A stretch of 64,000 bases of DNA, from the NCBI RefSeq assembly GCF_003334815.1, contig NZ_QOWO01000006.1, one strand, 5' to 3'. The stretch comes from Escherichia coli (GTDB lineage Bacteria; Pseudomonadota; Gammaproteobacteria; Enterobacterales; Enterobacteriaceae). Below, in pieces: positions 34,572 through 34,985 of the stretch. Numbering within the stretch: the first letter of the stretch is position 1; each line of letters opens with the position of its first letter. The translations under genes and the position numbers were made by a program. The notes beneath the pieces were generated by a model, which searched no databases, was not told the origin of the DNA, and saw nothing but the letters and a program-made list of their open reading frames with translations.

Positions 34572-34685
34572 TGTCTGTAAATCACGACAATGGGTGGTTT
34601 GCCGTGTCGCTTTCTGGCGACACTTAACTCATTGATTTTAATATTATCTAATAAGTTTATCTTAAGTTGTCTCTTTTTAGCGACA
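34572..34685 (+). promoter_or_regulatory. three GlrR (QseF) binding sites TGTC-N10-GACA upstream of glmY
   Basis: TGTCTGTAAATCACGACA (34572-34589), TGTCGCTTTCTGGCGACA (34605-34622), TGTCTCTTTTTAGCGACA (34668-34685). Confidence 0.7.
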
Positions 34686-34774
34686 CAGTGGCTGATTTAC
34701 ATTCAAACAGCGGAGGAGACATAAACCCCTCAAAGCAACGTATAATCAGTACGTTACCAAACTATTTTCTTTAT

Positions 34775-34790
34775 TGGCACAGTTACTGCA
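34775..34790 (+). promoter_or_regulatory. sigma54 promoter of glmY (TGGCAC-N5-CTGCA)
   Basis: GG at 34776-77 and GC at 34788-89, 12-14 and 24-26 nt upstream of the glmY 5' end; an overlapping sigma70 -10 is possible. Confidence 0.65.
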
Positions 34791-34801
34791 TAATAGTAAC
34801 C

Positions 34802-34985
34802 AGTGGCTCATTCACCGACTTATGTCAGCCCCTTCGGGACGTGCTACATAAAATACGAATGACGCACAACAAGGTGCCTGCCGTCCAACTTCTGATATCA
34901 GCGTAGCTATATCAACCATCGGGCGAAACGTCGAGTTAGGCACCGCCTTATTCCATAACAAAGCCGGGTAATTCCCGGCTTTGTT
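34802..34985 (+). ncRNA. glmY: GlmY small RNA (about 184 nt)
   Basis: AGTGGCTCATTCACCGACTTATGTCAGCCCC... through terminator AAAGCCGGGTAATTCCCGGCTTTGTT; matches GlmY as recalled; no ORF of 60 aa or more. Confidence 0.85.

Follow-up and report, generated by a model that had tools for sequence, protein, structure and literature searches.

The glmY gene of Escherichia coli K-12 and its sigma-54, GlrR and IHF control elements upstream of glrK-qseG-glrR

The stretch of DNA analysed here, hereafter the window, is 64,000 nucleotides long, and its positions 30599..39072 form an exact substring, base for base, of the E. coli K-12 MG1655 genome (NC_000913.3). Mapping the MG1655 annotation onto the window gave the gene order purL - glmY - glrK, with purL at 30599..34486, the non-coding RNA gene glmY (b4441) at 34802..34985 (+) with exact coordinates, and glrK (qseE, yfhK; b2556), which encodes a sensor histidine kinase and has a TTG start, at 35044..36471 (+). 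These are followed by qseG (yfhG; 36636..37349, +), coding for an outer-membrane lipoprotein that activates the kinase, by glrR (qseF, yfhA; 37339..38673, +), which overlaps qseG by 11 nt and codes for the sigma-54-dependent response regulator binding the sites ABS1 to ABS3 described below, and by glnB (38734..39072). The control region is bounded upstream by an intrinsic terminator of purL at 34545..34566 (+), with a stem of 8 bp and then a T-run, which a terminator scan located 59 nt past the purL stop codon. The intergenic segment 34487..35043 is 100% identical to MG1655, and it was present in a single chromosomal copy in each of the 5426 complete E. coli genomes searched (5426/5426). Judged by this identity, the locus is the annotated purL-glmY-glrK-qseG-glrR region of E. 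coli K-12; the feature as a whole is already known, and the glmY control region holds nothing new. Two open reading frames, at 34667..34906 (+, 79 aa) and 34812..35042 (-, 76 aa), were dismissed, as both extend over conserved non-coding RNA and promoter sequence and neither is annotated in any record.

The RNA itself was recognized by the Rfam family RF00128 (GlmY_tke1), which matched 34802..34949 with 146 bits (gathering score 33; E = 2.4e-33). The alignment took in the model from end to end (positions 1-163), with position 1 falling on 34802, so that both this match and the alignment to the MG1655 annotation, where the gene equals b4441 exactly, bear out the original prediction of glmY at 34802..34985. 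Identity to b4441 gives a primary transcript of 184 nt at 34802..34985 (+), of which the core 34802..34949 corresponds to the 148-nt processed active form and coincides with the Rfam match. These two lengths agree with published work, which reported a primary transcript of 184 nt and a processed active form of 148 nt, the latter serving as a decoy for RapZ (PMC4152352). The 184-nt RNA folds with -64.2 kcal/mol (z = -4.8 versus shuffles), and its minimum-free-energy fold places a terminator hairpin with a 12-bp stem and a 5-nt loop at 34957..34985 (+); the 3' arm ends in TTTGTT, followed by a further TGT. A terminator pattern scan listed the purL terminator only and passed over the glmY terminator, even though it folds as a 12-bp hairpin, because its tail, TTTGTTGT, has an interrupted T-run and fails the T-run rule. 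In an alignment of 30 sequences the GlmY consensus structure comprises 34 pairs, with 98.9% of cells paired versus 28-43% in slid controls. The same 30 sequences, drawn from different genera and species, contain 7 covarying pairs versus 0-1 in the slid controls; since most GlmY pairs are invariant, this covariation signal is real but modest.

The three genes downstream of glmY encode the system known to activate it. GlrK is identical to WP_001311037.1, annotated as 'QseE/GlrK', and carries the H-box HELKTP at residue 259; against NCBIfam it gave generic histidine-kinase matches only, all below their cut-offs. QseG matched the NCBIfam equivalog NF007997 with 359 bits (cut-off 234), and its N-terminal segment ...ALLGC puts a cysteine at residue 26; QseG has been described as a lipoprotein that activates the kinase (PMC6075780). 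GlrR matched the equivalog NF011695 with 982 bits (cut-off 763), and Pfam recognized in it the domains Response_reg, Sigma54_activat and AAA_lid_14 and, weakly, HTH_8, with D56 and a GAFTGA motif at residue 211. The genome thus encodes a cognate activator, GlrR, that combines a receiver, a sigma-54-interacting AAA+ domain bearing GAFTGA and a helix-turn-helix. The equivalog match of GlrR and its published activation of glmY (PMC3045617) uphold the original prediction that the known activator, GlrK/GlrR, is encoded just downstream, as does the position of the glrK start for the TTG expected about 60 nt after the glmY terminator: the TTG lies at 35044, on the same strand and 59 nt past the last base of glmY, with 58 nt between.

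For a comparison with relatives, one genome per species was scanned with a conserved 20-nt pattern from the GlmY 3' part, which yielded 120 loci. The GlmY 5' stem sequence is present in 84 of these, all but one (L072) from records named Enterobacterales. About 36 of the 120 pattern matches, found outside the Enterobacterales (Gemmatimonadota, Acidobacteriota and others; they include L004, L007, L016, L021, L051, L055, L061, L062, L064 and L077), were set aside as not GlmY. Fifteen of the non-Enterobacterales matches were inspected, and in the majority the reverse complement is an ORF with an L-D/N/Y-V-S-P/T/A-D-G motif (...LDVSPDG-type); from their sequence they appear to be chance matches in protein-coding genes, unrelated to GlmY. 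Among the related loci purL lies upstream in 74 of 84, and wherever the DNA extends far enough (81 loci) glrK follows glmY on the same strand, without exception.

This close and conserved arrangement raised the question of whether glmY and glrK-qseG-glrR might form one autoregulated operon, in which read-through of the glmY terminator would close a positive feedback loop. We consider this improbable: set against the short distance of just 58 nt on the same strand and a glmY-glrK order kept in 81/81 loci are the published statement that the E. coli K-12 two-component system is 'transcribed independently' (PMC3045617) and the strong 12-bp hairpin with which the glmY transcript ends in the minimum-free-energy fold. 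In K-12, glrK-qseG-glrR was reported as a separate unit with its own weak sigma-70 promoter, starting 25 bp upstream of qseE (PMC6075780), and the same study used lacZ fusions, one of them containing the whole glmY locus, to conclude that the qseEGF operon is not transcriptionally autoregulated (PMC6075780). A study in Proteus mirabilis names glmY-qseEGF an operon (PMC8745638), and co-transcription may therefore differ between genera. The 'one compact module' of the original prediction accordingly stands for gene order and falls for a shared transcript, since glrK-qseG-glrR is transcribed separately in K-12 from a sigma-70 promoter of its own and is not autoregulated (PMC6075780).

The published start 25 bp before qseE corresponds to position 35019 of the window, and at matching spacing upstream of it lie the hexamers TAGCAT (35007..35012) and TTGTAT (34984..34989), which we therefore infer to be the -10 and the -35 of a candidate weak sigma-70 promoter of glrK-qseG-glrR (34984..35019, +; start near 35019). 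The TTGTAT hexamer shares bases with the T-tract of the glmY terminator. The start codon of glrK (window 35044..35046) was compared across 81 Enterobacterales loci within L003-L122: 75 have TTG, 5 GTG, 1 CTG and none ATG, and a non-ATG start is kept across families. This fits the report that the QseE protein was undetectable in proteomics (PMC6075780). It is conceivable, though we regard it as doubtful, that the weak signals of glrK, its non-ATG start and its weak sigma-70 promoter, are selected to keep GlrK/QseE extremely scarce. If both weak signals were selected, it would be QseG, and not the kinase, that determines the gain of the system, and termination of glmY could be a physical hindrance to initiation from the qseEGF promoter.

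Turning to the control region of glmY, we found a sigma-54 promoter of the form TGGCAC-N5-CTGCA (TGGCACAGTTACTGCA) at 34775..34790 (+). With +1 at 34802, its GG falls at -26/-25 and its GC at -14/-13, so that a GG and a GC 10 bp apart lie about 24 and about 12 bp before the start. It is the sole perfect TGGCAC-N5-YTGCW in the window on either strand. By chance alone a perfect match would not be unusual in 64 kb, since 32 of 100 shuffles contained at least one, and the assignment therefore follows from position and conservation and not from the rarity of the match. TGGCA-N6-NTGC was present 25-28 nt upstream of the 5' end of the RNA in 81 of the 82 related loci with at least 270 nt upstream, the set on which all promoter-region counts are based, and the T, G, C, A and TGC columns of the element are invariant in the 30-sequence alignment; the -24/-12 element of the original prediction, at its expected spacing, is thereby borne out. 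The site OS24 assigned to glmY by sigma-54 ChIP-seq is the same sequence, TTGGCACAGTTACTGCA (PMC4591121). In that work overexpression of sigma-54 up-regulated glmY and GlrR was among the few enhancer-binding proteins active in standard conditions (PMC4591121), and activation of glmY was found to depend on glrR, rpoN and ihf (PMC3045617).

Overlapping the -12 element is the hexamer CATAAT (34789..34794, +; at -13..-8), published as the -10 of a weak sigma-70 promoter that shares its start nucleotide with the sigma-54 one (Goepel et al. 2011, PMC3045617). CATAAT was present in the sampled Escherichia, Citrobacter, Klebsiella, Raoultella, Enterobacter and Kluyvera and absent from the sampled Yersinia, Serratia, Photorhabdus, Pectobacterium, Dickeya and Brenneria, and our survey thus reproduced the phylogenetic split that Goepel et al. 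had described (2011, PMC3045617). A generic sigma-70 scan of 34400..35200 reported no promoter, and the best -35 candidate for CATAAT matches 3/6 positions. The scan missed the published promoter because this -35 is poor, and its result therefore speaks neither for nor against that promoter.

Upstream of the promoter lie three perfect TGTC-N10-GACA palindromes, to which no strand is assigned: ABS1 (TGTCTGTAAATCACGACA) at 34572..34589, ABS2 (TGTCGCTTTCTGGCGACA) at 34605..34622 and ABS3 (TGTCTCTTTTTAGCGACA) at 34668..34685, with centres at -221.5, -188.5 and -125.5. Together they cover -230..-117 relative to +1 at 34802; their perfect motif and a distance of over 100 bp to the promoter are as expected of enhancers for GlrR/QseF. 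Searching both strands of the 64 kb window gave these three copies of the motif and no more, all within 114 bp; in dinucleotide-preserving shuffles, which served as the null, the mean was 0.72 per window and 1 of 100 shuffles reached three. All three coordinates of the original prediction were exact, with no other copy in the window. Its description of the palindromes as evenly spaced was wrong, because the centres give spacings of 33 bp between ABS1 and ABS2 and 63 bp between ABS2 and ABS3, about 3 and about 6 helical turns. Published work describes GlrR as binding three TGTCN10GACA motifs that lie over 100 bp ahead of glmY and as activating the sigma-54 promoter of this gene (PMC3045617), and, according to papers that cite it, an earlier study by Reichenbach et al. 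(2009, Mol Microbiol 74:1054) mapped the GlrR footprints and the glmY start site. Among the related loci, 73 of 82 contain three sites with at most one mismatch to TGTC-N10-GACA at spacings of 32-33 and 63-64 bp: between ABS1 and ABS2 the spacing is 32 bp in 39 of these 73 loci and 33 bp in 34, and between ABS2 and ABS3 it is 63 bp in 71 and 64 bp in 2. In the 30-sequence alignment, made at the level of genera, the TGT and GAC columns of ABS1 are nearly invariant; positions G65, T66, C67 and A79 of ABS2 (window 34606-34608 and 34620) are invariant, as are the GT and GAC columns of ABS3.

Two perfect matches to the IHF consensus WATCARNNNNTTR were found, one on either side of ABS3 and both at conserved islands. 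One lies between ABS2 and ABS3 (AATCAATGAGTTA on the minus strand, 34625..34637, -), where its TA and TG columns are invariant among the 30 aligned sequences and the perfect consensus is kept in 53 of 82 related loci. The other, between ABS3 and the promoter (AATCAGTACGTTA, 34744..34756, +; -58..-46), falls on a conserved ATCA...TTA island of the same alignment and is a perfect match in 27 of the 82. The DNA between ABS2 and ABS3 has a G+C content of 18%. Published experiments showed two IHF-like sites flanking ABS3 and binding of IHF to a glmY fragment (PMC3045617), and they found IHF and 'site 1', one of the two IHF-like sites, to be essential for the sigma-54 but not the sigma-70 promoter (PMC3045617).

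Across the 270 nt upstream of the RNA, the mean column identity among the 30 sequences is just 50%, and the invariant or near-invariant columns fall on the half-sites of ABS1 to ABS3, the two IHF-like motifs, TGGCA and TGC. The remaining alternative, that the sigma-54 and TGTC-N10-GACA motifs are there by chance and glmY is transcribed solely from an ordinary sigma-70 promoter, can draw on the overlap of the CATAAT -10 with the -12 element and on the 32 of 100 shuffles with a perfect sigma-54 consensus, yet its probability is negligible and it is already refuted by the conservation found here together with what was published on rpoN, glrR and ihf mutants: three enhancer motifs within 114 bp compare with 0.72 expected for the whole window, the sigma-54 and GlrR motifs are invariant islands in an otherwise divergent alignment, the -24/-12 core is kept also in genera lacking CATAAT, and use of sigma-54 is supported by ChIP-seq (PMC4591121) and genetics (PMC3045617).

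We therefore hold it to be practically certain that the E. coli K-12 glmY gene with its transcriptional control region best explains the sequence, and we found no evidence contradicting this explanation. The mechanism with the best support is the one already published: GlrK, stimulated by QseG, phosphorylates GlrR, phosphorylated GlrR (QseF) occupies the three TGTC-N10-GACA enhancer sites 117-230 bp upstream, and the AT-rich DNA from these sites to the promoter is bent by IHF. The AAA+ domain of GlrR next remodels the sigma-54 holoenzyme at TGGCAC-N5-CTGCA, opening the closed complex for a start at 34802, and the weak sigma-70 promoter (CATAAT) overlapping the -12 element provides basal transcription from the same start. 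The 184-nt GlmY is shortened to about 148 nt, and the processed RNA sequesters the RNase adaptor RapZ, whereby GlmZ is spared and can activate glmS; glrK, qseG and glrR, directly downstream, have in K-12 a weak sigma-70 promoter of their own. Within this scheme, our analysis showed which locus this is, which motifs it carries and how these are conserved and spaced, how the RNA is structured, and to which families the RNA and the proteins belong; for binding, IHF dependence, the common start site, processing of the RNA and sequestration of RapZ it relies on the literature. Published work on glmY includes mapping of the start site, gel shifts with GlrR and IHF, rpoN, glrR and ihf mutants and sigma-54 ChIP-seq, as well as site-directed mutants of ABS1 to ABS3, IHF site 1 and the -10.

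The locus does not differ from its known counterpart: it is the one studied by Goepel et al. (2011, PMC3045617) in E. coli K-12, with all published elements at their published relative positions, and its glmY sequence is identical to that of MG1655. The original prediction is thus supported in its identification of glmY, the sigma-54 promoter, the GlrR sites and glrK-qseG-glrR, and it was incomplete with respect to the overlapping sigma-70 promoter, the requirement for IHF, the uneven spacing and the separate glrK-qseG-glrR unit. The main value of the result is as a positive control, in that a published architecture was recovered to the base from raw sequence. Biologically, control of glmY couples the synthesis of amino sugars (GlmY/GlmZ/RapZ/glmS) to envelope signalling (QseE/QseG/QseF).

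The same architecture of a sigma-54 promoter, three TGTCN10GACA motifs and two IHF sites is found at the glmZ promoters of Yersinia, Salmonella and Serratia (PMC3045617), although glmZ is a different sRNA gene at another genomic location than glmY. E. coli glmZ has lost the sigma-54/GlrR/IHF architecture and has a single sigma-70 promoter (PMC3045617). With glrK downstream, the related loci of our survey are glmY and not glmZ in 81 of the 81 that have enough downstream DNA. A second QseF-dependent sigma-54 promoter, rpoE P2, likewise shares its start site with a sigma-70 promoter (PMC6358824; PMC6075780) but, unlike that of glmY, drives a protein-coding gene. The rpoE gene lies in the same window at 16130..16705 (+), and its upstream region contains no perfect TGTC-N10-GACA; a crude scan of 15300..16130 found no strong TGGCAC-N5-TTGCA and only weak candidates with 7/11 positions matched. 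Four of the window's 19 TGT-N12-ACA motifs are located within 730 bp upstream of rpoE, at 15401, 15539, 15729 and 15803.

Some further observations concern individual relatives. In three genomes of insect endosymbionts, two of Arsenophonus and one of Symbiopectobacterium (loci L020:849-1118 (-), L094 and L070), the -24 element, the -12 element or both carry mutations at bases that are otherwise invariant. Arsenophonus from Aleurodicus has TTGACA in place of TGGCAC; in the Arsenophonus endosymbiont of Aphis craccivora the -12 reads TAC instead of TGC, and the GlmY 5' stem reads GATCATTC instead of GCTCATTC; and in Symbiopectobacterium 'North America' TGGCA has become TAGCA, TGC has become TGG, and the GlmY 5' stem GCTCATTC has become GCTAATTC. 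The one locus under a name from outside the Enterobacterales, L072 (NZ_SZPQ01000010.1, 'Martelella alba' BGMRC 2031, an alphaproteobacterium by NCBI taxonomy), has the enterobacterial purL-glmY-glrK arrangement, a sigma-54 promoter with CATAAT and a GlrK 65% identical to that of E. coli; misclassification or contamination of this record is probable. Measured from the 5' end of glmY, glrK starts at a distance of 243 nt in most loci of Escherichia and Citrobacter, of 380-690 nt in Photorhabdus, Serratia and most Yersinia, and of as much as 1336 nt in Y. pestis (L068) and 1927 nt in Y. rohdei (L082); such long distances suggest that DNA was inserted between glmY and glrK.
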